DNA from: a virus | Taxonomy: Duplodnaviria > Heunggongvirae > Uroviricota > Caudoviricetes | Virus record (IMG/VR): IMGVR_UViG_2917408641_000004 | Direction: 5' to 3' (one strand) | DNA length: 44,025 nucleotides | Shown here: positions 20 to 23,594 of the stretch, piece after piece | Layout: each line of letters begins with the position of its first letter | How positions within the stretch are numbered: the stretch's first letter is position 1 | Program-made: the position numbers and the translations under genes | Notes under the pieces: model-generated | Told to the model about the DNA's origin: nothing | Databases searched by the model: none | The model's input: only the letters and a program-made list of their open reading frames with translations

Positions 20-1315
20 TTAATTTTTCATTGCTTCGTTATGGGGCATGGTTGGGGCAAACTCGCTTAACTGTGTATTTAACAAAGCTACCTGTGCATT
101 ATTGTTTTCAGACATCCATTTTCCGTATACCTGAAATACCATTTGCGCATCTGCATGGCCCATCTGGTTTGCTATAAATGCCGGGTTAGCACCAGCTGTC
201 AGCGACCAGCAGGCATAAGTATGTCTCGACTGATATGATTTTCGATGGCGGAGTCCGGCACGTTTTATCGCTGCGTCCCACATCTGCCTTATTGAGTCAA
301 CGGTAAAATGGTCACCATAATTTTTTACTCTCGCTGACACTTCAGGTTGAAAAACAAAGGTGCATTTATGTTTTTCTGTTCTGCCATACTCTCTGAGGTG
401 AACATCAATGATATGCTCTTTGCTCAGTCTCGTTAATGTCATCTGACTCCGGAGAGCGTCGATTGCTGGCTTAATAAGATGAATGACCCGATTGGTTCCC
501 GCCTGTGTTTTTGGTACCGTGAAACGGTCTTTTGCTAAATTTCTCCTGATCATCATTGTTCCATTTTTCAGATCTATGTCCTCCCATCCAAGTGCACACA
601 GCTCACCAGGGCGAACGCCAGTATAAACAGAAACACACCATAAATTTTTGGCTTGCTGATTTCTGCACGCATCGATAAGACGGATGAATTCCTCCCGCGA
701 AAGAGGATCCGGAATGGTTCTTGATTCCTTTAATGGCGAGATCCCCTTAAACGGGTTATCTGCCAGGTAACCGTTATCAACACCAAACTGGAACACGGCG
801 TTAAGATTTGTCATGTAATTATTTACAGTTACAGCCGATCTCCCTGGTTGTGTAACAATATAGTTACTTTTGGGGATCTGGTATCCAGTCAGTAGCTCTT
901 TACGAACCTCCAGTAATTTTTCTTTATTAATCGATGAGGCAAGATTTTTTTCACCGATTATGCTCAGGATATTTTTGATGACGGCACGGTATGTGTTGAG
1001 TGATGTTTTTGCGACTTCAGTTTCTTTCAGTGCCAGAAATTTTTCAGCCAGTTCTTTTATGGTTAAATCTTGTCGGGTCTCACCAAATTTTTCCAGATTG
1101 CGTGAGGAGGGAAACTGTTTTGCATAGTCGAAAACACCAGTTTTTATTGCGTAACAAACAGAGGCGCGTAGCTCACCTGCAACGCGCCTGTTTTTTGCTG
1201 TGTCAGGAACCCCCAGGTTTTCCCTGACTCTTACGCCTTTATAAACAAACCAGATACGTAATTTCCCTCCATGGTTTTCCACGCCTGTCGGATATTTCAT
1301 TTCAACTTCTCTCAT
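20..1315 (-). CDS. int: Phage tyrosine integrase
   Basis: 431-aa ORF; C-terminal catalytic region with tyrosine-recombinase signatures (..SRHTYACWSL.., ..MGHADAQMVFQVYGKW..); located at prophage edge next to an excisionase-like gene. Confidence 0.9.
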   Translation of the reverse strand: MREVEMKYPTGVENHGGKLRIWFVYKGVRVRENLGVPDTAKNRRVAGELRASVCYAIKTGVFDYAKQFPSSRNLEKFGETRQDLTIKELAEKFLALKETEVAKTSLNTYRAVIKNILSIIGEKNLASSINKEKLLEVRKELLTGYQIPKSNYIVTQPGRSAVTVNNYMTNLNAVFQFGVDNGYLADNPFKGISPLKESRTIPDPLSREEFIRLIDACRNQQAKNLWCVSVYTGVRPGELCALGWEDIDLKNGTMMIRRNLAKDRFTVPKTQAGTNRVIHLIKPAIDALRSQMTLTRLSKEHIIDVHLREYGRTEKHKCTFVFQPEVSARVKNYGDHFTVDSIRQMWDAAIKRAGLRHRKSYQSRHTYACWSLTAGANPAFIANQMGHADAQMVFQVYGKWMSENNNAQVALLNTQLSEFAPTMPHNEAMKN

Positions 1316-1658: not shown

Positions 1659-4130
1659 TTAAGAATCAGCCTGACTCGGGATCAGTTTTTGCCAGATAAC
1701 TGAAACGTATTTTGCCTGGTAACGGGCGTCATCAAGTGCATTATGGCGCTCACCTTCGAATGGAATAGCCGTTCTGGCATCGAAGTCTATGGCTTTCCCC
1801 AGCTCAACGATTGTGCGTACATCGCGATCGTTGTAGTAACGCCACGGGCAGGGGATCCCCTGCCGTTCGTATGAACGGCGCAAAATCGTGTTGTCGAAGT
1901 TGGCTCCATTTCCCCAGACCTGAACAAAAAATTCACCGGAGTTTTCGTCGATAAATTCCCGCAATTGTAACAGTGCATCATCTAACGGGATTTCATCGGT
2001 CATAATGGCAGATTGCGCTTCGCGTGATTGCTTAAGCCACCATTTAATGGTGTCCCGATCAATGACTCCGCCAGCAGTTTCCAGATCGATAGTCTTACTA
2101 AATTCGGGTCCCATATCTCCGGTTTGCGGATCGAAAAATATTGCACCTATTGAGATGATCGGGGCATCAGGATTTTTTCCCATGGTTTCAAGGTCGATCA
2201 TTAGATGGTCACACGTCCTGCTGGTGGATGTGATTTCGTGATGACCGTTCACCTTAATTGAGTGATCTGCCGTCTCGCCAGTTTCATTATCGCTATTGTG
2301 ATGCTGATTGCCGCCAGTGTTCTCCTTGTGTGGATGTTCAGCGCCTTCCATTTCCTCCGGATCATCTTCCTGAACTTCAACCTGATACTCTTCATCGAAT
2401 GTTTCTTGGTATGTTGCGTCGCCCATCACCGCGCCACAATCAGGGCAGTTGCCGCCGCCGGTCTGACCGCAGGCGGTGCAGACTTTTTCCACTTCCTGTT
2501 GCGCCACTGGTTCAGGCTGTTTCGTTTCTGGCTCGTTTTGTAACGCATTTGGGCTGTTTTGTTCCGCTTTTTGGTAGTTCCGTTCCGATTCATGCTGGTT
2601 CTGGTTCACAGAATCGCGGGTCTGGATCCCCTTAACCCATTTCGGATCATTCGGGTCACTAATCCCTTCAACAAATTCACCACGTGATGCAGCAAGCAAC
2701 TTATCGGCGTCAGGCTGGCTGATATTGGCTGCCTGCATAATTTTGTTTACTTCGTCAGCGGTAACTTTTATCGGCTCTGGTTGTTCTGAATCTTCAGCGG
2801 TATCTACATTTTGCGGTAAGCCCGTGTATGTGCCATTTTTTCGGGCAAAATATTCTTCTTTTGTGATTTCAGTGGCGCCAGCAGCCAGTGCCTTATCCAG
2901 ACCAGAAAGTTTGTTTGCGCGACCGTATTTTTCTCCGTCCTTATCTGCGAAGAGGAAATAGAACGGCCCCTCACGCTCTACAGATGGTTCAGCTTCCGGC
3001 GCGGTTTCATTTTTTGGGATATCAGATACCTCAGTTTCCACTGCATCAGTTTGTGTTTCTGATGACTGGAGAACATCAACAGTGCCTAGGTCTGTTTCTT
3101 CATTCTCAAACACGCCCTTTGTCGTCAGGTATTCGCAGATATATTTGTTCAGTGCTACGGGATCTTTGTGAATGTCGATCGGACGCTCACGGACAAGGCC
3201 AAAAATAGTTTGGCGGTCGTAGCGAAGGGCATCAGGCTGTTTGCGCATTGATGCCGAGATACGCTTCCAGTCTTCGCGGTCGTTGTCGATAACTTCTTTT
3301 TTTGCCCAGCGATGGATGCTGCCGTCAATGTTTCCGGCATCCACATCACCAGGCCAGAGAGCGTAGGCCAGTTCGTCATCCAGTGTTTTCCATGTCTGCT
3401 TGTATTCGCGATGAATGGCAGCAATGACCGGGCTGATTTTTCCTGTTGAATTTTCAGTGTACTGTTGATTGGCTCTGGCGCGGGCGAGATCAACAACAGA
3501 CGTGTATTTTCCGGTTTCCTTGCGTTCACCTTCGCGACGTTTTTTCCAGATGCGCATCTCTGCCTGAATTTCGGGCCATTTAGCACCAGGAATACATTTA
3601 TGCTTAACCCACCCAATGGCGTGCAACTTAAGCTCCGGATACATGGCGTTAACTTCTGGCATTTTCATCAACGCTTCAACGATATGTCCGTCGAATGTTG
3701 CCATGTCTTCCTGCAACAATTCCTGTGCGCTAATAACCATATCAACGGTGATGTTTTCACATGTGTCGAACTTAACCATGACAGCGTTCTGTACTTCAGG
3801 GGCCAGCTTGTCAAAAGTGACGTTCATCGGATCGGATTCAGTCTCAACCGGGACAAAAGAAGCAGACTCCTCATCCCAGCGGTTTTCCTGCATATATTCA
3901 GCATCCCATGAATCGAGGGCAGGGCGGGGTATGCCAGGTTTATCCTCGCAGACAATAAATTTATAAGCGCAGTCCTGAGCAGCCGGATAATGTTCCAGGA
4001 ACTGCCAGTGAAATTTTGCTCGAGCACGGCGTTCGTCGCCAGCTTCAATGGCTGTGGCTACAGCCACAGCGCCTTCTTCCCTTGTTGCCAGTTCGTCAGG
4101 AATAGCGGCGCAAATAAAGACTTTACTCAT
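1659..4130 (-). CDS. Large phage exonuclease with C-terminal DEDDh 3'-5' exonuclease domain
   Basis: 823-aa ORF; C-terminal ~190 aa carry Exo I/II/III-like motifs (MIDLETMG, WGNGANFD, HNALDDARY); central Cys4 cluster CTACGQ..CPDCG; occupies the recombination-gene position. Confidence 0.75.
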   Translation of the reverse strand: MSKVFICAAIPDELATREEGAVAVATAIEAGDERRARAKFHWQFLEHYPAAQDCAYKFIVCEDKPGIPRPALDSWDAEYMQENRWDEESASFVPVETESDPMNVTFDKLAPEVQNAVMVKFDTCENITVDMVISAQELLQEDMATFDGHIVEALMKMPEVNAMYPELKLHAIGWVKHKCIPGAKWPEIQAEMRIWKKRREGERKETGKYTSVVDLARARANQQYTENSTGKISPVIAAIHREYKQTWKTLDDELAYALWPGDVDAGNIDGSIHRWAKKEVIDNDREDWKRISASMRKQPDALRYDRQTIFGLVRERPIDIHKDPVALNKYICEYLTTKGVFENEETDLGTVDVLQSSETQTDAVETEVSDIPKNETAPEAEPSVEREGPFYFLFADKDGEKYGRANKLSGLDKALAAGATEITKEEYFARKNGTYTGLPQNVDTAEDSEQPEPIKVTADEVNKIMQAANISQPDADKLLAASRGEFVEGISDPNDPKWVKGIQTRDSVNQNQHESERNYQKAEQNSPNALQNEPETKQPEPVAQQEVEKVCTACGQTGGGNCPDCGAVMGDATYQETFDEEYQVEVQEDDPEEMEGAEHPHKENTGGNQHHNSDNETGETADHSIKVNGHHEITSTSRTCDHLMIDLETMGKNPDAPIISIGAIFFDPQTGDMGPEFSKTIDLETAGGVIDRDTIKWWLKQSREAQSAIMTDEIPLDDALLQLREFIDENSGEFFVQVWGNGANFDNTILRRSYERQGIPCPWRYYNDRDVRTIVELGKAIDFDARTAIPFEGERHNALDDARYQAKYVSVIWQKLIPSQADS

Positions 4131-4223
4131 TTTGTTTTAACCTCATGACAGATTTAAGGATGAACAAATCCCTGCCATTGCTGGCATATAAGAATGAAAC
4201 CGGATATTTATTACGGAACTGTT

Positions 4224-4415
4224 TTAAAGACCTGCCGGGATTTCGATATTATCCAGGTGAATAACTTTATCGACCGGGTAACAGTTACCGGGAATTTTCT
4301 GTTCGGTTGCTGCAGTCATACACTCCTGCATTGTCCTGTGAACACTGACTGCAATATCAACTGGCTCTCCGGAAACAAGAAAAACTGTCAGAACAAGCGC
4401 AAATGCTGAATTCAT
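4224..4415 (-). CDS. Small hypothetical protein with N-terminal signal peptide
   Basis: 63 aa from ATG at 4415 (SD AAGGA 8 nt upstream); hydrophobic N-terminus MNSAFALVLTVFLVSG; ATGA overlap with upstream gene suggests translational coupling. Confidence 0.5.
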   Translation of the reverse strand: MNSAFALVLTVFLVSGEPVDIAVSVHRTMQECMTAATEQKIPGNCYPVDKVIHLDNIEIPAGL

Positions 4416-4600
4416 TGTGCACATCCTTTTGGCATCAGACGTAAACGAGCCAGCATTGAAACAATGCATATTTTATTTAATAGCTCCCGTTCTTGTTTTC
4501 TCTTGTTAATGGCATCTTCAGTAAATACAGGGTTACTGATAGTGACACCAATTTCAAAACAACCTTCAGACGTATTAACGTTTGGTAATAACGTTTTCAT
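4412..4600 (-). CDS. Small hypothetical early protein
   Basis: 62 aa from ATG at 4600 with SD GAGGA 7 nt upstream; stop overlaps start of next gene (ATGA). Confidence 0.5.
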   Translation of the reverse strand: MKTLLPNVNTSEGCFEIGVTISNPVFTEDAINKRKQERELLNKICIVSMLARLRLMPKGCAQ

Positions 4601-5102
4601 TATCGCGTCCTCAACAATGAATTTTGTGATGCAGTGCCTGGTGCCTCCAGGTGACGTTAACCAGTTAACAATTAACGCCGGATACAGAGAATCCACCCAT
4701 AACACTGTTTTTGGTTTTAACTGTTCCGCGTGCGCTTAGCCGCATTCACCGCATCACAAAATTCACTTTAAAAACGGCGGCAGAGCAGTCACGGAGTAAA
4801 ACTGATACCGCCAAACGTCACCAGAAAATTGATAACAGAGGGCGTTGCAGCGGGGTTGTCACTTAAGCGTATGGTCAACCTGACAACTCGGTGTCCTCAA
4901 CGGGGAAGGAATAACCCCGCCATACTTACCGCCGCGCCATTTCGCGGGTTGCCACAACCGGAAGCGCACGGTCGAATTAAATTTAACGACACCGTACAGT
5001 GAGACGAACTTCGCCGTGCGCTTTCGTGTTGTGTGCCTGCTTTTAACCACGTCAGGCGAGGTGGTATCCTTCTTATCCCGAATAACCAAGAAGGAAATCT
5101 AT

Positions 5103-5303
5103 ATGACTAAAGAAGAATTTGTCTCTTATATTTTTGATAAAACGGTTGAAATGTATGCCGCTACTTACGGGTCCTGTAATCCTCTGAATAAACCAGAGGG
5201 GAAAGATGATTTCGACAAAATTTACCGCTTCTTGGAGGACCGCTATATCAAAAGGTTAGAGGACGCAGGGATCAAATCCCCAGTGAAGTCACCATTGTCC
5301 TGA
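5103..5303 (+). CDS. Small hypothetical protein
   Basis: 66 aa from ATG 5103 with SD AAGGAA; transcribed opposite to the flanking early genes. Confidence 0.45.
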   Translation: MTKEEFVSYIFDKTVEMYAATYGSCNPLNKPEGKDDFDKIYRFLEDRYIKRLEDAGIKSPVKSPLS

Positions 5304-5366
5304 GAACTTGCAGGACGTCATGATCGTAACTTCCATCCAAACCGCGACGGCAAATTGCTTCTCGTA

Positions 5367-5636
5367 TTACCGGAAGCAGTTCGCTGGAAATCTCGGTGAT
5401 ATTTCACCTGATAATACGCCTGGCTCAAGTGAGAATATTGGTGAACTTACGCTCTTGGTCTCGACAGTTTCAGAGTCAGTGCCAACATTATAAAGCTCAA
5501 CGAAAGCGGTCTTGATTTTCCGGGCCAGATCTTTTGCTGGCTCGCTTGCAATATCTTTCCCGATTTCTCGCAGCACAGAATGCAATGTATGAGCTGCTGT
5601 TTTCTGTACATCAGACGGTAAATCTTTAAATTCCAT
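5367..5636 (-). CDS. Small hypothetical early protein
   Basis: 89 aa from ATG at 5636 preceded by GAGG; overlaps stop of upstream gene. Confidence 0.45.
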   Translation of the reverse strand: MEFKDLPSDVQKTAAHTLHSVLREIGKDIASEPAKDLARKIKTAFVELYNVGTDSETVETKSVSSPIFSLEPGVLSGEISPRFPANCFR

Positions 5637-5647
5637 CGTCAGCCTCA

Positions 5648-5800
5648 TCAGTCAGTGTTTCTGGCTAACCAGCAACGCGCGCCAGATTCGGTTTTAAACG
5701 TTTTGCTTTTGGTATATGTCATCGCGGTGAACGTACCGTCCTGGTTGGGGAACACGCCACATACCAGAGATTCGCTGTTGCCAAGATCGATAGTATCCAT
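5648..5800 (-). CDS. Small hypothetical early protein
   Basis: 50 aa from ATG at 5800 preceded by GAGG. Confidence 0.4.
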   Translation of the reverse strand: MDTIDLGNSESLVCGVFPNQDGTFTAMTYTKSKTFKTESGARCWLARNTD

Positions 5801-5966
5801 GCTGACCTCATTTCCCCTTAACGCCGGGGTAGCGGAACTGTTTGCTGAGAACACCGTGCGGTGTGTTGATGCAAACAAGATTAGCTATGACTAACATATT
5901 GGTCAAGTGATTTTGTATGTTATGACTAACATAATTAATGTAGTAAAAGATAACTCATTGATGATG

Positions 5967-6374
5967 TTATCTTTTATTTGTCCGCTGACGGGCTTTTAGT
6001 AATTCTTCAAAGAGTTTATTGAAGTTTTTTACTCGAGCTCGCATTTCGGCGAGCTGGGTATCCTGTTCTGATTCTGGCAGTGCATTAAACAGCTCAAGGA
6101 GCTCTAGTTCTTTGGGAGATAAGGCAACTGGCTTCTCAACAGGTGGTGTTGGTTGCTTGTCTTCATCGCCAAATAGAATCCATGTTGGTGAGCATTGCAA
6201 TACTTTGCTGAGGGCAAAAAGGTTCTTCCCTGTAGGTTCACTATCATCCCGTTCCCATTGTGATACAGACACATGGGAGATTTTCAGGGCTTTAGCAAGA
6301 GACCTTTGGGTGTGTTTGAGGTTTTTCCGACGATACCTAATGCGTTCGCCGATAGTTAAATTTTTTGTATCCAT
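5967..6374 (-). CDS. Prophage repressor, HTH XRE family (RacR/CI-like, no S24 peptidase domain)
   Basis: 135 aa; N-terminal helix-turn-helix (QRSLAKALKISHVSVSQWER); divergently arranged with a cro-like gene across an operator-like palindromic intergenic region. Confidence 0.8.
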   Translation of the reverse strand: MDTKNLTIGERIRYRRKNLKHTQRSLAKALKISHVSVSQWERDDSEPTGKNLFALSKVLQCSPTWILFGDEDKQPTPPVEKPVALSPKELELLELFNALPESEQDTQLAEMRARVKNFNKLFEELLKARQRTNKR

Positions 6375-6457
6375 AGTTAGCTAATGCTAAATCGTATTGA
6401 CTATGTTTTTGTTAACATCTATTTTGTTAGTTATAACTAACAATCAAGGTGTTTTAA
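6375..6457. promoter_or_regulatory. Divergent promoter/operator region of the immunity switch
   Basis: 83-bp intergenic region between repressor and cro-like starts; perfect 20-bp palindrome TTGTTAGTTATAACTAACAA at 6424-6443 plus shorter palindromes TTAGCTAA and TGTTAACA; TTGACT -35-like hexamer at 6397. Confidence 0.5.
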
Positions 6458-6688
6458 ATGCTTAAAACTGACGCTCTTTTGTATTTCGGTTCAAAAACAA
6501 AACTTGCACAAGCAGCTGGTATTCGTTTGGCTTCGCTTTATAGCTGGAAAGGGGATTTAGTTCCCGAAGGTCGCGCGATGCGTCTACAGGAGGCATCTGG
6601 CGGGGAGCTTCAGTATGACCCCAAAGTTTATGACGAATATCGTAAGACGAAGCGGGCGGGGCGGTTGAACAATGAAAATCACTCCTGA
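6458..6688 (+). CDS. Cro/YdaS-like HTH regulator
   Basis: 76 aa; SD AAGGTG upstream; HTH-like segment KLAQAAGIRLASLYSW; divergent from repressor as in Rac racR-ydaS. Confidence 0.7.
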   Translation: MLKTDALLYFGSKTKLAQAAGIRLASLYSWKGDLVPEGRAMRLQEASGGELQYDPKVYDEYRKTKRAGRLNNENHS

Positions 6689-7193
6689 ACAGGCTCGTGA
6701 GGCTCTGGATGCCTGGATATGTCGACCAGGAATGACACAGGAGCAGGCGACGATATTAATCACTGAAGCATTCTGGGCTTTGAAAGAGCGCCCGAACATC
6801 GATGTTAAGCGTGTCACAGATGAAGGTGGCGCGGTTGATCAGCGAGCGCTTGGCGTTAATCGAGTGAAGATATTCGAACGCTGGAAGGCTATCGACACCA
6901 GGGATAAGCGTGAAAAGTTCATGGCGCTAGTGCCTGCAATTATGGAGGCTATCCGGATTAATGATTTCAGGTTATATCGTGAAATTAGTGACGGAAAAAG
7001 CATCACGTATATGATCGCCGGGTTAAACAAAGAATATGGCGATGTGGTGGAGTCCGGACTGCTTTTTGCTGATCCTGCCGTAGTGGATCGTGAAACTGAC
7101 GAACTTATAGAAAAAGCAATTGCTTTCAAGCTTGCGTATCGACAGCAATACCAACAAAAAGCTGGATGGAATTATGAGTCTTCTTTTTGCTGA
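6672..7193 (+). CDS. YdaT/CII-like protein
   Basis: 173 aa; start overlaps end of cro-like gene by 17 nt; position and size match the second gene of Rac-type ydaS-ydaT pairs; family assignment by synteny only. Confidence 0.5.
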   Translation: MKITPEQAREALDAWICRPGMTQEQATILITEAFWALKERPNIDVKRVTDEGGAVDQRALGVNRVKIFERWKAIDTRDKREKFMALVPAIMEAIRINDFRLYREISDGKSITYMIAGLNKEYGDVVESGLLFADPAVVDRETDELIEKAIAFKLAYRQQYQQKAGWNYESSFC

Positions 7194-8139
7194 ACGCCCA
7201 CTGGTTATAAACACACAGCTTGCGATGAAGATTGGCTTAAACGAGGCCATTGTGTTGCAGCAGTTGCATTACTGGTTGAGAGATACTAATTCCGGTATGG
7301 AATGTGATGGTGTCCGCTGGATTTATAACACAACGGAACAATGGCTGGAACAGTTCCCATTCTGGTCAGAGTCAACGTTAAAGCGCGCGTTTGCAAGTCT
7401 GAAAACGCTGGGGCTTTTGCGTTGCGAAAAGCTCAATAAATCAAAGCGCGACATGACCAATTTCTACACGATCAACTATGGGTGCGAGCTTTTAGATGGT
7501 GGTAAATTGAGCGTATCCATCGGTTCAAAATGCGCTGCTCCATCAGGTCTAAATGATACGATGGAAGAGGTCAAAATGAAACGCTCCATTGGTTCAAAAC
7601 GACCCAATGTCATCGGGTCAAAATGGCCTGATGATCTTACAGAGAATACAACAGAGATTACTACAGAGAATAAAAACACTTTTCGTCCGGAAGCTTCGCA
7701 ACCGGACCCGCAGACGACTGAACAGGATTTTTTAACCCGGAACTCCGACGCGGTTGTGTTTAGTGCGAAAAAACGCCAGTGGGGTAGCAGGGAGGATTTG
7801 GCGTGTGCGCAGTGGATCTGGGGGCGGATCGTGGGTCTCTACGAACAGGCAGCCAGTGATGATGGCGAGATCATGCGACCAAAAGAGCCTAACTGGACTG
7901 CCTGGGCCAATGACGTGCGCACAATGCGGATGCTGGATGGCAGAAGCCACAGACAAATTTGCGAAATGTTTGGTCGGGTTCAGCGAGATCCATTCTGGGT
8001 AAAAAACATCATGAGCCCGTCAAAGCTCCGCGAAAAATGGGACGAACTGGTCATCCGCCTGGGACGTTCACCTGTACAGCGTTGTGTTAATCATATTTCT
8101 GAACCGGATACAGAAATTCCGCCTGGTTTCAGAGGATAA
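7174..8139 (+). CDS. Phage replication initiator (O-like N-terminus, DnaT-like C-terminus)
   Basis: ATG at 7174 (an alternative TTG start at 7120 exists); iteron repeats lie inside the coding region, encoding repeated IGSK peptides; C-terminus ..VNHISEPDTEIPPGFRG matches the C-terminal signature of primosomal protein DnaT. Confidence 0.7.
   Translation: MSLLFAERPLVINTQLAMKIGLNEAIVLQQLHYWLRDTNSGMECDGVRWIYNTTEQWLEQFPFWSESTLKRAFASLKTLGLLRCEKLNKSKRDMTNFYTINYGCELLDGGKLSVSIGSKCAAPSGLNDTMEEVKMKRSIGSKRPNVIGSKWPDDLTENTTEITTENKNTFRPEASQPDPQTTEQDFLTRNSDAVVFSAKKRQWGSREDLACAQWIWGRIVGLYEQAASDDGEIMRPKEPNWTAWANDVRTMRMLDGRSHRQICEMFGRVQRDPFWVKNIMSPSKLREKWDELVIRLGRSPVQRCVNHISEPDTEIPPGFRG
7517..7625. repeat. 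Replication origin iterons (five approx. 23-bp-spaced repeats) followed by A-rich region
   Basis: Repeats CCATCGGTTCAAAATG (7517), CCATCAGGTCTAAATG (7540), GAGGTCAAAATG (7567), CCATTGGTTCAAAACG (7586), TCATCGGGTCAAAATG (7610); followed by ACAGAGA(A/T)TA triplicate in an A-rich stretch to about 7685. Confidence 0.6.
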
Positions 8140-8179
8140 GTGTTGATTTCAGGTCATGAGGTAATTTTAAGGGGGACTT

Positions 8180-8602
8180 GTGGCAAAAGTTTTTACACAA
8201 GAAGAGCGGGAAAAAATTAAAGGGCAGGTGGTGGAACTCGTGCGCCAGAGCGGTCGTGAGACGTTACGGCAACTGGAAGCTAAAACAGGTGCGACTAGAT
8301 ATCTGATGAGCGTTCTTGCCAGAGAGCTGGTAGCCAGTGGCGATGTATACAACTCCGGCTACGGGTTATTCCCGTCTGAACAGGCGCGTAAGGACTGGCA
8401 AAACGCCCGCAAAAAACTCTCGAGGGCAAAGGTGAAGAAACCTGCTGTGGTTGATCCGGACCTTATCTGGTCATTACCTGACGGAGAAATACGCCGCTAC
8501 GACAGTCGTCTAAACATAATCTGTCGCGAGTGCCGGAAGAGCGAAGTTATGCAGCGTGTTCTGACGTTTTATCAGGGGAATTATCGGGAGGTGATGCTGT
8601 GA
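8180..8602 (+). CDS. Hypothetical phage protein
   Basis: 140 aa; GTG start preceded by strong SD AAGGGGG. Confidence 0.5.
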   Translation: MAKVFTQEEREKIKGQVVELVRQSGRETLRQLEAKTGATRYLMSVLARELVASGDVYNSGYGLFPSEQARKDWQNARKKLSRAKVKKPAVVDPDLIWSLPDGEIRRYDSRLNIICRECRKSEVMQRVLTFYQGNYREVML

Positions 8603-9672: not shown

Positions 9673-10163
9673 GAAATTAGAGGAAATCTTGCAGCCATGA
9701 TATGGCTTAAAATAACGTTTGATTATTTTACCTGCTGTTTGTCCCTGGTTTAAAGTCGGTTGTCTGATTTGATTACGCGCAACTGACGCTTACGTATTGA
9801 AGTAACGAGCACGAAGACACATATTTATCAGTGCCTGTATACGTCAAGAGCAGGAGATTTATGTGCTGGTTCTCAAATGCACGCTGGCTATTGTGGCTGT
9901 AATGGCAATTTATTGTCTTGTTATTGTTCTTATGGATCACCTTTCTGATTGATTTCATATTGGCGAGGTAACGGTAGTTAAGTAGAATGGCTGCGGGTGC
10001 TTGAGGCTATCTGCCTCGGGCATGAACACCAACGGCAGATAGAGAAAAGCCCCAGTTAACATTACGCGTCCTGCAAGACGCTTAACATTAATCTGAGGCC
10101 AATTTCATGCTAGACACATGTAGGTTAGCCTCTTACGTGCCGAAAGGCAAGGAGAAGCAGGCT

Positions 10164-10319
10164 ATGAAGCAGCAAAAGGCGATGTTAATCGCCCTGATCG
10201 TCATCTGTTTAACCGTCATAGTGACGGCACTGGTAACGAGGAAAGACCTCTGCGAGGTACGAATCCGAACCGGCCAGACGGAGGTCGCTGTCTTCACAGC
10301 TTACGAACCTGAGGAGTAA
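10164..10319 (+). CDS. hokD: Hok/Gef family type I toxin (HokD/RelF-like)
   Basis: 51-aa product MKQQKAMLIALIVICLTVIVTALVTRKDLCEVRIRTGQTEVAVFTAYEPEE: single TM helix plus conserved Hok C-terminus; SD AAGGAG upstream; 3' hairpins and terminator downstream as in hok mRNAs. Confidence 0.85.
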   Translation: MKQQKAMLIALIVICLTVIVTALVTRKDLCEVRIRTGQTEVAVFTAYEPEE

Positions 10320-10535: not shown

Positions 10536-10772
10536 ATGATGAACATCGAAGAACTGCGTAAAATTTTTTGTGAAGATGGCCTCTATGCTGTGTGCGTTGA
10601 AAATGGAAATCTTGTTAGTCATTACCGCATTATGTGTTTGCGAAAGAATGGGGCTGCGTTAATTAATTTTGTGGATGGTCGAGTGACAGACGGATTTATC
10701 TTGCGCGAAGGTGAGTTTGTCACTTCATTACAGGCACTGAAAGAGATCGGAATAAAAGCAGGCTTTTCGTAA
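10536..10772 (+). CDS. Rem-like small protein, 3' end replaced by IS66-family insertion
   Basis: 78-aa ORF whose last codon and stop are supplied by the IS end; removing the IS and one TSD copy restores an 83-aa ORF ending ..GFSAFAEE, the size I recall for Qin Rem; family call by synteny. Confidence 0.5.
   Translation: MMNIEELRKIFCEDGLYAVCVENGNLVSHYRIMCLRKNGAALINFVDGRVTDGFILREGEFVTSLQALKEIGIKAGFS
10761..10768. repeat. 8-bp target-site duplication of IS66-family element (left copy; right copy 14906-14913)
   Basis: GGCTTTTC directly flanks both imperfect terminal inverted repeats. Confidence 0.8.
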
Positions 10773-16341: not shown

Positions 16342-17094
16342 ATGAACCTTGAAGCTTTACCAAAATATTACTCCCCAAAATCTCCAAAATTGAGTGATGA
16401 CGCACCGGCGACAGGCTCGGGTGGTTTAACAATAACAGATGTGATGGCTGCGCAGGGGATGGTGCAGTCGAAAGCTCCGCTTGGTTTTGCCTTATTCCTG
16501 GCAAAAGTTGGTGTTCAGGATCCTCAGTTTGCGATTGAAGGTCTGCTCAATTACGCGATGGCAATGGATAATCCGACATTGAACAAATTGAGTGAAGAAA
16601 TCCGGTTACAGATCATCCCTTACCTTGTGAATTTTGCCTTTGCTGATTATTCCAGGTCTGCGGCAAGTAAGGCTCGCTGTGAGTATTGTGCTGGTACTGG
16701 ATTTCATAATGTATTGCGCGAAGTGGTGAAACACTCCAGAAGTGGGGAATCTGTTATCAAGGAAGAGTGGGTGAAGGAACTATGTCAGCATTGCCATGGT
16801 AAGGGAGAAGTCAGCACAGCGTGCAGAGGGTGTAAGGGGAAAGGTATTGTCCTGGATGAAAAAAGAACCCAGCTTCATAGCACGCCTGTTTATAAGGTTT
16901 GTGGGCGTTGCAATGGAAACCGGTTTAGTCGTTTACCAACGACACTGGCGCGGTGTCATGTCCAGAAGCTGGTACCAGACCTGACGGATTATCAGTGGTA
17001 CAAAGGATATGCAGATGTCATTGATAAACTGGTTACAAAGTGCTGGCAGGAAGAAGCATATGCTGAGGTGCAATTAAGAAAAGTGACGAGATAA
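16342..17094 (+). CDS. Late-gene antiterminator Q
   Basis: 250 aa; multiple CxxC zinc motifs (CEYCAGTG, CQHCHGKG, CRGCKGKG, CGRCNG); located upstream of the lysis genes. Confidence 0.7.
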   Translation: MNLEALPKYYSPKSPKLSDDAPATGSGGLTITDVMAAQGMVQSKAPLGFALFLAKVGVQDPQFAIEGLLNYAMAMDNPTLNKLSEEIRLQIIPYLVNFAFADYSRSAASKARCEYCAGTGFHNVLREVVKHSRSGESVIKEEWVKELCQHCHGKGEVSTACRGCKGKGIVLDEKRTQLHSTPVYKVCGRCNGNRFSRLPTTLARCHVQKLVPDLTDYQWYKGYADVIDKLVTKCWQEEAYAEVQLRKVTR

Positions 17095-19422: not shown

Positions 19423-19722
19423 AAAAATTCCTTAATACTGATAACTTGGCGCACTATACACACGTTCCTGAAGAAAGCTATAGTTTTTTGATGGGGTTGA
19501 AGATGGCTGGATGTCTAAAATAAACATTGCTTCATATGTTCAACTATGCGTTAATGATTGCGTCGGTTTGAAGAACAGACGATATACGAAGTAGTTTACT
19601 AAAGCAGTTCTCATTTCAGGTGTTATTCACTTATTCCTTCTTTGAGTCTCTCCAATTAAGTACGAAGTCGTTTCTGTTATACAAGCCATTTATGCCGAAA
19701 GGCTCAAGTTAAGGAATGTAGA

Positions 19723-19938
19723 ATGTCAAATAAAATGACTGGTTTAGTAAAATGGTTTAACGCTGATAAAGGTTTTGGCTTTATTTCTCCTGTTGATGGT
19801 AGTAAAGATGTGTTTGTGCATTTTTCTGCGATTCAGAATGATAATTTTCGAACCTTATTTGAAGGTCAAAAGGTTACCTTCTCTGTAGAGAGTGGTGCTA
19901 AAGGTCCTGCAGCAGCAAATGTCATAATTACTGATTAA
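19723..19938 (+). CDS. cspB: Cold-shock protein CspB
   Basis: 71-aa product [38 protein letters not shown]..; CspA-family RNP motifs. Confidence 0.8.
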
Positions 19939-20221
19939 AATTAATAGTTTGTCTGTATACGATAACGAAGAAGGCTGATGCCTGAGTGGAGATACAGACA
20001 GAGTGGTGAATATTGGATCTCTTTAATAAATAGTAAGGAGATCCAATACATGAAACAATGACCAGCATATTTGGCAATAACTTAATCAGGAAAAGTATGC
20101 TAACCATTGTGGTGAAGTGCAGGTTTGCTGCATGAATAGTTTTACAGCAGAAGCTAACTGCTAGCATAGCAAAACAAAGTGCGTAAGTGGATGACTCCCA
20201 CAAAAAGCACCACAATATTAA

Positions 20222-22811: not shown

Positions 22812-23174
22812 ATTAATATTAAATCGGATTATTTTTAGCGCTGAATGTGAAATTTAAATAAAAAGGACTCTTCCATGAGTCAAAATCCTTGAAATCTTAA
22901 GGGTAAGATAAAAGGTCATTAGACAGAATGACACGTTTTATTAATAAATAAAGCTATTGTTTCATTCGTGTGTTTTTCTTTACAAAAGTAATCCTTGCTA
23001 TGGTTGGTTAATCATGCGTTAATGGTGTTCTGGTTTGTTACAAAATTATCTGAAGCAGTCATTGTTATAATTTTATTATTTGTACCTCTTGAGATTTCCT
23101 TGTTGGTTTTTCTCTCTGATATTTTTTTTCGGACCATTCTGCCCAAGGGCTAACTTCTTCAAAAGGTAATAATG

Positions 23175-23387
23175 ATGTCTAACAAAATGACTGGTTTAGT
23201 GAAATGGTTTAACCCTGAAAAAGGTTTTGGTTTCATCACGCCGAAAGATGGTAGCAAAGATGTGTTTGTCCATTTCTCAGCTATTCAGAGCAACGATTTC
23301 AAAACGTTAACTGAGAATCAGGAAGTCGAATTTGGTATTGAGAACGGACCTAAAGGCCCCGCGGCTGTTCATGTTGTGGCACTTTGA
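23175..23387 (+). CDS. cspI: Cold-shock protein CspI
   Basis: 70-aa product [70 protein letters not shown]. Confidence 0.8.
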
Positions 23388-23594
23388 GGTAGAAAATATT
23401 ACAAACCATATTCACTTTAGATGCCCGTGTTGCCATGGTTCTCAGTATAGAACATCATCTTTTGATGTTTCTGACAGGAATCCTTTCGGGGCAAAATGTA
23501 TCTTTTGTAAATCAATGATGATTACATTTGATAATATTTCACAATACTTAAATGTTAGCCGTCTGTCGTTAGATTTAAGAAAGTGAAAATGAAG

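Follow-up and report, generated by a model that had tools for sequence, protein, structure and literature searches.

What are the five small open reading frames (ORFs) that lie between an exonuclease gene and a repressor gene in this virus genome, and do they encode anything new? The window analyzed here is the whole 44,025-nucleotide stretch of IMG/VR record IMGVR_UViG_2917408641_000004. A sequence-only reading had placed ORFs of 50 to 89 aa in this interval, one of them on the opposite strand, and had compared their position to the slot used by lambdoid phages for host-takeover and exclusion genes. The layout stands as described: ORFs of 50, 89, 66, 62, and 63 aa sit between the genes for an 823-aa exonuclease and a 135-aa repressor, the 66-aa ORF is indeed on the plus strand, and the whole forms an early-left, pL-equivalent operon beside the immunity region. 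The accompanying claims that no ORF could be assigned to a known family and that the functions were uncharacterized do not stand. Three of the ORFs belong to Pfam families and match E. coli K-12 genes at 100%, 97%, and 88% identity (DicB, PF05358; YdfD, DUF1482; YdfA, DUF1391, respectively), and two of these, DicB and YdfD, are homologous to well-characterized lambdoid early proteins. With a probability of roughly 0.93, we identify the region as the early-left dicBF operon of a Qin-type lambdoid E. coli prophage. The locus is already known, and the window carries the published version in intact form. Its parts, together with their regulators, are as follows.

1659-4130, minus strand: gene for a YdfE-type exonuclease, 823 aa, last gene of the operon; Pfam PF16473, E 2.4e-67, residues 642-813
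4224-4415, minus strand: ydfD, 63 aa, probable lysis protein by analogy with K-12; Pfam DUF1482 (PF07358), RefSeq 'lysis protein YdfD'
4412-4600, minus strand: dicB, 62 aa, probable cell-division inhibitor and phage-exclusion protein by analogy with K-12; Pfam PF05358, NCBIfam NF049927
4775-4826, minus strand: dicF small RNA with an intrinsic terminator hairpin and U-run; Rfam RF00039
4827-4964, minus strand: putative DicF precursor region, from homology to K-12
5045-5656, no strand: 612-bp mosaic insert, at both edges of which the K-12 homology stops
5060-5071, plus strand: GGTGGTATCCTT motif, ending 32 nt upstream of the orf66 ATG; invariant in eight diverged loci
5103-5303, plus strand: orf66, 66 aa, antisense to the operon; forms a convergent pair with the 121-aa family gene; phrog_34441, E 1.5e-50
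5367-5636, minus strand: frameshifted allele, 89 aa, of the 121-aa two-module protein phrog_33007, from alignment to intact alleles
5648-5800, minus strand: ydfA-like gene, 50 aa, DUF1391, first gene of the operon; Pfam PF07151
5878-5906, minus strand: dicBp, leftward early promoter; the dicA-ydfA interval aligns near-identically to K-12
5967-6374, minus strand: dicA, repressor of dicBp, 135 aa; NCBIfam NF007257 (PRK09706), 235.6 bits, cut-off 101; 133/135 identical to K-12
6458-6688, plus strand: dicC, Cro-like regulator; NCBIfam NF007282 (PRK09744), 159.5 bits, cut-off 130; 76/76 identical to K-12
10536-10772, plus strand: rem homologue, 78 aa, antirepressor; tblastn against K-12 Rem 98.7% over 78 aa, E 2.4e-49

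The identification is carried by homology to the Qin prophage of K-12, which covers window positions 3364-5044 at 98.2% and 5657-6951 at 96.8%, with none between these segments and with the gene order kept. At the level of products, DicB (62/62) and DicC are identical, DicA, YdfD (61/63), and DicF (52/53) are 97-99% identical, and YdfA is 88% identical (43/49). Qin also shares the strand logic, a near-identical dicBp, and a Rem homologue with the window, but it carries ydfB-ydfC where the window has the 612-bp insert. In addition, ydfE of K-12 is cut by IS2 and the prophage is cryptic, whereas here the exonuclease is full length and the prophage looks complete. The YdfE-type protein ends in a C-terminal DEDDh 3'-5' exonuclease domain, and its gene aligns to the K-12 ydfE pseudogene as far as the IS2 insertion. 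None of the five ORFs is a mere chance ORF, three having Pfam matches with E values from 2e-26 to 2e-40 and the other two PHROG matches with E <=1e-50, and the same genes are annotated by RefSeq in E. coli loci 99% identical to this one. At least parts of the query were found in 4762 of 5426 complete E. coli genomes.

The comparison extends to the other lambdoid prophages. The accessory genes of the lambda pL operon (kil, cIII, ral, sieB) occupy the same slot and have the same kind of function, although sequence homology between them and the window ORFs was not found and DicA is not self-cleaving. The Rac prophage (racR, ydaG, ydaF, sieB, kilS, kilR, ydaE, racC, recE) has the same arrangement of a repressor, a DUF1391 gene (ydaF), an opposite-strand gene, a small RNA, an FtsZ-directed division inhibitor, and an exonuclease; however, DicB and DicF have no sequence relationship to KilR and KilS, and RecE belongs to another exonuclease family. 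In function, DicB corresponds to Kil of lambda and KilR of Rac; lambda Kil is described as blocking FtsZ ring assembly (PMC3961180).

What was observed in the window is the identity, order, and conservation of these parts; how they would act can be taken from published experiments with K-12, whose corresponding sequences share 97-100% identity (10.1101/2023.04.14.536235, also PMC10448788; PMC6832061; PMC5069750; PMC8835842). DicB matches PF05358 over its full length (136.8 bits, cut-off 27, residues 1-62 of 62, E 1.9e-40) and NF049927 at 132.8 bits (cut-off 100). Its start is an in-phase internal ATG within a longer ORF at 4412-4705, with GAGGA 8 nt before the ATG. PMC6832061 and 10.1101/2023.04.14.536235 describe DicB as inhibiting division via MinC and FtsZ and as excluding phages that inject their DNA through ManYZ. 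The K-12 protein for which the MinC/FtsZ and ManYZ activities were demonstrated has the same sequence as the DicB encoded here. The protein would therefore be expected to bind MinC and take it to the septum, where the FtsZ ring would be dismantled and filamentation would follow, and it would also stop DNA entry of ManYZ-using phages.

Directly downstream lies ydfD, whose product matches PF07358 over the complete model (92 bits, cut-off 25, 1-57 of 57, E 2.1e-26). Two translational couplings through ATGA overlaps had been proposed for the region, and the one at 4412-4415 joins dicB and ydfD; the other is not an ATGA, as the ydfA-like stop codon meets the upstream ATG in the sequence TGATG, a one-base overlap at 5648, and with the RefSeq start at 5636 the gap to the 89-aa ORF is 11 nt. 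Translated in this coupled way, YdfD would bind IspG and cause lysis, an effect that a block of division would counteract. [quoted passage not shown]

The five-ORF picture left positions 4706-5100 empty, and in doing so missed the main regulator of the region, the DicF RNA, which lies in this interval together with its precursor. The dicF sequence scores 72.5 bits against RF00039 (gathering score 48, E 2.6e-15) over model positions 1-52 of 52 with no non-standard pairs flagged, its terminator hairpin is followed by UUUUU, and phage Tritos has it annotated under the name DicF. It is encoded on the same strand as dicB, whose ATG follows 174 nt downstream, and the 218 nt upstream of dicF (to position 5044), which include the precursor region, are 98.2% identical to K-12. 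[quoted passage not shown] Together with Hfq, it would then pair to the ftsZ, xylR, pykA, and manX mRNAs and block their translation. As the terminator of DicF precedes dicB, expression of dicB and ydfD would need read-through. In K-12 northern blots covered by 10.1101/2023.04.14.536235, no long ydfABC-dicF-dicB-ydfDE transcript was detected. The RNA 5' of the DicF precursor is changed by the insert, and antisense transcription of orf66 could alter processing or read-through relative to K-12. A TTG-initiated ORF in this interval (4859-5089, minus strand), which matches phrog_8854, was rejected as a gene because it overlies the DicF precursor and is absent from the RefSeq annotation.

Expression of the operon would be governed by the immunity genes at its upstream end. 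The dicA and dicC genes are arranged divergently as a DicA/DicC immunity pair. The hexamers of dicBp can be read as a -35 element TTGACC (5901-5906) and a -10 element TAATCT (5878-5883), separated by a 17-nt spacer, and repeated TTAGTCATA(A/G)C motifs surround the promoter, which we take to be putative DicA operators. In the lysogen, dicBp (about 5878-5906, minus strand) would be shut by DicA, in line with 10.1101/2023.04.14.536235, which describes the promoter as lambda-PL-like and DicA-repressed. DicA has no S24 self-cleavage domain, so that derepression would depend on Rem, on a DicA/DicC bistable switch, or on stress; relief of DicA repression is the role given to Rem in 10.1101/2023.04.14.536235. 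The resulting leftward polycistronic RNA would carry, in order, the ydfA-like gene, the frameshifted 121-aa family gene, the DicF precursor, dicB, ydfD, and the exonuclease gene. In the interval from the repressor gene to the first ORF, no gene for an N-type antiterminator was recognized. A generic scan for promoters and terminators made no more calls here than in shuffled sequence, and neither dicBp nor the motif upstream of orf66 was among them.

The first gene downstream of the repressor gene is the ydfA-like gene, whose product matches PF07151 at 94 bits (cut-off 27.3, E 4.3e-27) and whose relatives are named 'DUF1391 family protein' in RefSeq. The "ydfA" of PMC12111858 is a plasmid gene (ibfA operon, pUA1135), and that paper is silent on the function of prophage YdfA.

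The one segment foreign to K-12 Qin is the insert at 5045-5656, which replaces the end of ydfA together with ydfB and ydfC and which holds the 89-aa ORF and orf66. The ydfB-ydfC slot is a swap site, and we infer that the insert is a separate accessory module. The proteins of the insert bear little resemblance to those they replace: local alignments of the 89-aa ORF and orf66 to YdfB and YdfC scored only 19-31, and BLASTP of orf66 against YdfB returned no alignment with E <= 100. Neither insert protein has a family in Pfam, NCBIfam, or PADLOC, and both match only "unknown function" families in PHROGs. With YdfA placed in a named family (DUF1391), orf66 and the frameshifted 121-aa family ORF alone are without a family assignment after the analysis.

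The 89-aa ORF had been read as a plain small gene and is instead a frameshifted allele. As compared to E. coli 300081 and phage mEp460_ev081, it has a 1-nt deletion between positions 5398 and 5399, and its match to phrog_33007 spans positions 1-80 of 121. Down to about 5272, the sequence of the lost C-terminal module can still be read by switching frame. All 50 of the 50 other loci that contain the exact stretch have the intact allele, and the deletion occurs only in L022, a locus 100% identical to the window. The deletion may reflect an error in sequencing, although it lies outside a homopolymer run. The 93-aa product of the frameshift had no exact counterpart on record. For the start of the ORF, RefSeq and the homologues favor MEFKDL, whose ATG, at 5636, follows a GAGG. 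When 1.84 billion representative proteins were searched by profile, 95 relatives of the 121-aa family turned up, almost all of which have only the N-terminal ~50-aa module in common with it. Pfam domains were found in 0 of the 88 relatives scanned, and domain fusions gave no hint of function. Against PDB sequences, the family profile gave only a non-significant match to an archaeal histone (E 0.046), and the AlphaFold2 model of the 121-aa protein (pLDDT 52.7) was too poor for a structure search.

The second gene of the insert, orf66, is listed in RefSeq as a 'hypothetical protein' (WP_000159335.1). It is a real gene, with a dN/dS of 0.10-0.27 and an invariant upstream motif. AAGGA lies 8 nt before its ATG, and the GGTGGTATCCTT motif farther upstream is kept even in Cedecea despite differing surroundings. 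From its sequence, we infer that the motif is an extended -10 promoter element (TG-n-TATCCT). Transcription of orf66 from this promoter of its own would run against the operon, so that most orf66 expression would fall in periods when the operon is off. The predicted protein is small, acidic, and soluble, and lacks a membrane segment; its AlphaFold2 model is a helical hairpin (pLDDT 79.5) that had no match at E <= 0.001 in the PDB or BFVD. The orf66 family profile found nothing among PDB sequences, profile-profile comparison indicated no relation to the 121-aa family, and a literature search with the RefSeq accessions of the orf66 and 121-aa family proteins found no papers.

The two genes travel together, being linked in 58 of the 62 loci examined; of the four non-linked loci, L006 has only a short match to the C-terminal module and L071-L073 have orf66 fragments. 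The pair is convergent with a 29-56 nt 3' overlap across different prophages, immunity types, and flanks, and orf66 always opposes an early lytic operon, which in Cedecea is the cro/cII operon. It is only the C-terminal module of the 121-aa family, at residues about 75-121 of the intact allele, that co-travels with orf66. That module would be the constant partner of orf66 and would be inactivated in this genome. These features, along with the conserved extended -10-like motif and the position of orf66, invite the reading that the insert is an exclusion/escape or toxin/antidote pair with a logic like that of sieB/esc. Under this reading, orf66 and the C-terminal ~45-aa module would constitute an undescribed two-gene prophage module, in which orf66 made in the lysogen harms a superinfecting phage or the host, the module expressed from the early lytic operon neutralizes it, the 3' overlap adds antisense control, and the antidote half has been lost here by frameshift.

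We regard such a pair as unlikely. The lambda sieB gene is an exclusion gene expressed in the lysogen, and orf66 has the position and strand of Rac sieB; the resemblance is limited to these. Rac SieB is a 162-aa exclusion protein, and orf66, an acidic soluble helical hairpin without a membrane segment, is unlike it and, in what is an indirect test, matched no defense family model. PADLOC searches of six proteins, including the defense-model test, returned no family at E <= 0.1, and homology to defense or toxin-antitoxin families was not found. The linkage of the two genes could also be mere inheritance of a short DNA block. Furthermore, a strong toxin would fit poorly with a genome that tolerates a frameshift in the presumed antidote gene. 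Laboratory strains of the E. coli B/BL21 lineage carry the same gene pair, making the module easy to test; BL21 has this insert with the 121-aa allele intact.

Very unlikely is the proposal that the five ORFs as a group are uncharacterized anti-host or superinfection-exclusion genes without known family. In its favor, orf66 and the 121-aa family ORF have no match in Pfam, NCBIfam, PADLOC, the PDB, or BFVD, and the YdfA/DUF1391 family carries no functional assignment. Against it, DicB is identical to an experimentally characterized K-12 protein, YdfD is nearly so at 97%, and the DicF RNA has been characterized as well. The main outcome is a correction: the region, as a dicBF operon, is among the better-studied E. 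coli prophage loci and is no reservoir of novel genes.

It is similarly hard to credit that the locus is a decaying, non-functional remnant without a role for the phage, like cryptic Qin, for although one gene of the region is frameshifted, the K-12 version resides in a defective prophage, and in the E. coli B version the exonuclease gene is truncated and the integrase gene frameshifted, all other genes here are intact, including the exonuclease gene that is disrupted in K-12, and DicB, DicC, and DicF are identical or near-identical to active K-12 alleles. The dicBF operon described here lies inside what looks like a complete phage genome, with window ORFs for integrase, replication, Q, lysis, terminase, head, and tail functions, and the window resembles the sequenced phage genomes HannyBb, mEp460_ev081, and Tritos. 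An intact Qin-type phage context, as opposed to a cryptic remnant, offers a setting for asking what DicB, DicF, and YdfD do for the phage. The window also carries hok/sok.

The five small open reading frames that a sequence-only reading had placed between an 823-aa gene (1659-4130, minus strand) and a 135-aa helix-turn-helix repressor gene (5967-6374, minus strand) are present in the ORF list and in the sequence:

4224-4415, minus strand: 63-aa ORF (ORF list)
4412-4600, minus strand: 62-aa ORF, starting at an ATG inside a longer ORF
5103-5303, plus strand: 66-aa ORF, here called orf66 (ORF list)
5367-5636, minus strand: 89-aa ORF, or 93 aa if the upstream ATG at 5648 is used
5648-5800, minus strand: 50-aa ORF (ORF list)

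The sequence finding is real, yet the system is already known: the dicBF operon is present here in a new copy, with its ydfB-ydfC slot swapped. The 62-aa ORF is DicB (Pfam E 1.9e-40, full length; NCBIfam 132.8 bits, cut-off 100), and the 63-aa and 50-aa ORFs, described earlier as unassigned like the rest of the cluster, match Pfam DUF1482 (E 2.1e-26) and DUF1391 (E 4.3e-27). The repressor is DicA (NCBIfam 235.6 bits, cut-off 101), the divergent 76-aa ORF is DicC (159.5 bits, cut-off 130), and what had looked like an empty gap holds the DicF sRNA gene (4775-4826, minus strand; Rfam 72.5 bits, gathering score 48). The sequence-only reading had itself named confident homology to well-characterised lambdoid early proteins as grounds for giving up the word "uncharacterised", and such homology is what was found. 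Its view of the region as an early host-takeover or exclusion slot was correct, and the E. coli K-12 prophage Rac has a parallel layout, with ydaF (DUF1391), sieB on the opposite strand, the kilS sRNA and kilR. Of the translational coupling it proposed, that of the 63-aa and 62-aa ORFs is a true ATGA overlap (4412-4415). Where the 89-aa and 50-aa ORFs meet, coupling depends on the start codon: the upstream ATG gives TGATG, in which one base is shared, but the MEFKDL start, preceded by a GAGG Shine-Dalgarno sequence and chosen by RefSeq, leaves an 11-nt gap between the two.

Compared with the cryptic K-12 prophage Qin, the window's products are identical at 62/62 residues for DicB, 76/76 for DicC, 133/135 for DicA, 61/63 for YdfD and 43/49 for YdfA, and at 52/53 nucleotides for DicF. 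DNA identity is 98.2% over 3364-5044 (upstream of dicF through dicB, ydfD and ydfE) and 96.8% over 5657-6951 (ydfA through dicA and dicC to ydfX), and the dicBp promoter region is near-identical. Between these two blocks, a 612-bp insert (5045-5656) stands in for the ydfB-ydfC of K-12 and carries the 89-aa and 66-aa ORFs, the two to which no family was assigned. The 823-aa protein is YdfE at full length; in K-12, IS2 interrupts it. RefSeq uses the same gene names in 99%-identical loci of other E. coli strains, some part of a 1.9-kb query was matched in 4762 of 5426 complete E. coli genomes, and the locus also occurs in sequenced phage genomes such as mEp460_ev081, HannyBb and Tritos, the last of which has DicF annotated.

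Because published work used sequences 97-100% identical to those of the window, the K-12 mechanism can be transferred, and on this sequence identity we hold with high confidence that it would apply to the operon described here. DicA, which lacks a self-cleavage site, represses dicBp, and repression is relieved by the antirepressor Rem, the DicA/DicC switch and stress (10.1101/2023.04.14.536235, also PMC10448788). A Rem homologue lies at 10536-10772 on the plus strand (98.7% identity over 78 aa), stopping five residues before the end of the 83-aa K-12 protein. DicF represses the ftsZ, xylR, pykA and manX mRNAs (PMC5069750). DicB recruits MinC to the septum, so that division is blocked, and also gives protection from ManYZ-using phages (PMC6832061). 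YdfD is an IspG-binding protein that brings about lysis, an effect counteracted by DicB or SulA (PMC8835842).

Several further features lie close to the operon. Rfam gives a match, below threshold, to STnc100, a candidate sRNA of Salmonella (4568-4777, minus strand; 34.5 bits against a gathering score of 47, E 4.5e-5). The match spans the dicF-dicB spacer and the first dicB codons; in Salmonella prophages, STnc100 may be the corresponding leader region. A 76-aa ORF with a TTG start (4859-5089, minus strand) matches phrog_8854 (E 2e-27). It was rejected as a gene: it overlies the DicF precursor, has no RefSeq annotation in K-12 or E. coli 300081, and probably represents a shadow ORF brought into PHROGs by phage annotations. 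After dicC, a 173-aa ORF (6672-7193, plus strand) occupies the lambda cII position; it has no NCBIfam match, and its relatives are annotated as "toxin YdaT family protein".

Within the insert, the minus-strand ORF is 121 aa long in its relatives (phrog_33007; RefSeq "hypothetical protein"). A 1-nt deletion after position 5398 moves translation out of frame near codon 80, which leaves the 89-aa ORF. All 50 other loci with exactly the same stretch carry the intact allele, and no record of the exact frameshift product was found. The only second copy of the deletion is in one IMG/VR contig, which is 100% identical to window 2103-8300 and is therefore taken to come from the same source. The 121-aa protein consists of two modules, an N-terminal one of ~50 aa and a C-terminal one of ~45 aa, the latter lost in the window. 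Small phage proteins that share the N-terminal module (5483-5636, minus strand; consensus MxFxDLPxxVQxIAAxTL...EPAKxLAR...AFxELY) form a family that takes in 95 clusters (50% identity) and five PHROGs or more. Its members are mostly stand-alone proteins of 50-66 aa; the family has no Pfam entry, and no Pfam domain was found in the 88 relatives scanned.

The plus-strand orf66 is a real gene, with a dN/dS of 0.10-0.27 against homologues of 54-89% identity and a good Shine-Dalgarno sequence. Upstream, the motif GGTG(G/A)TA(T/C)CCTT (5060-5071) is invariant across eight diverged loci and reads as a putative extended -10 element. The predicted fold of orf66 is a soluble helical hairpin. PADLOC and PDB sequence searches gave no significant match for the insert ORFs, and Foldseek searches of PDB and BFVD with the orf66 model gave none either.

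Orf66 and the C-terminal module form a linked pair. Among 62 further loci surveyed for linkage, orf66 is in 58 accompanied by a convergent gene of the 121-aa family overlapping its 3' end, a count that takes in two Cedecea loci where the partner is a C-terminal remnant only; the other four loci are L006 and three with orf66 fragments only. The pairing is seen regardless of flanking genes or immunity type. Partners that depart from the usual form retain the C-terminal module only: in L006 similarity is limited to the C-terminus (33% identity, E 9e-6), and in Cedecea a short ORF is the C-terminal module alone, with orf66 antisense between cro-like and cII-like genes. We infer that the pair forms an accessory module, each half being expressed under a regime opposite to that of the other. 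A putative role in exclusion and escape, or as toxin and antidote, is an unlikely reading. The pair also occurs in laboratory strains of the E. coli B/BL21 lineage. In BLR(DE3) (NZ_CP020368.1 1574784-1579604), the same block of dicB, ydfD, orf66 and the 121-aa gene is found at 98.8% identity, with the 121-aa allele intact, a repressor and Cro pair different from the window's, a truncated exonuclease gene and a frameshift in the integrase gene.

The window (1-44025) looks like a complete Qin-type lambdoid prophage and not a cryptic remnant. An integrase gene (20-1315, minus strand), a full-length exonuclease gene and replication genes are present, and among phages the window is matched best by HannyBb (76% of the first 25 kb, 98.8% identity), PhiR42_1 and mEp460_ev081. 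By size alone, large ORFs at 25-43 kb are terminase, head, tail and tail-fibre candidates, and by size and order alone a 250-aa ORF (16342-17094) and an adjoining 349-aa ORF were likened to ydfT (a Q-like antiterminator) and ydfU of K-12. A hok/sok-type toxin and antisense RNA locus (9995-10319, plus strand; Rfam sok 115.3 bits, gathering score 59) contains a Hok-like ORF, the counterpart of hokD in K-12 Qin. Two cspA-type thermoregulator leaders (19562-20001 and 23017-23433, both plus strand; 159 and 110 bits against a gathering score of 78) imply that the late region has a pair of genes for cold-shock proteins, resembling cspB and cspF of K-12 Qin.
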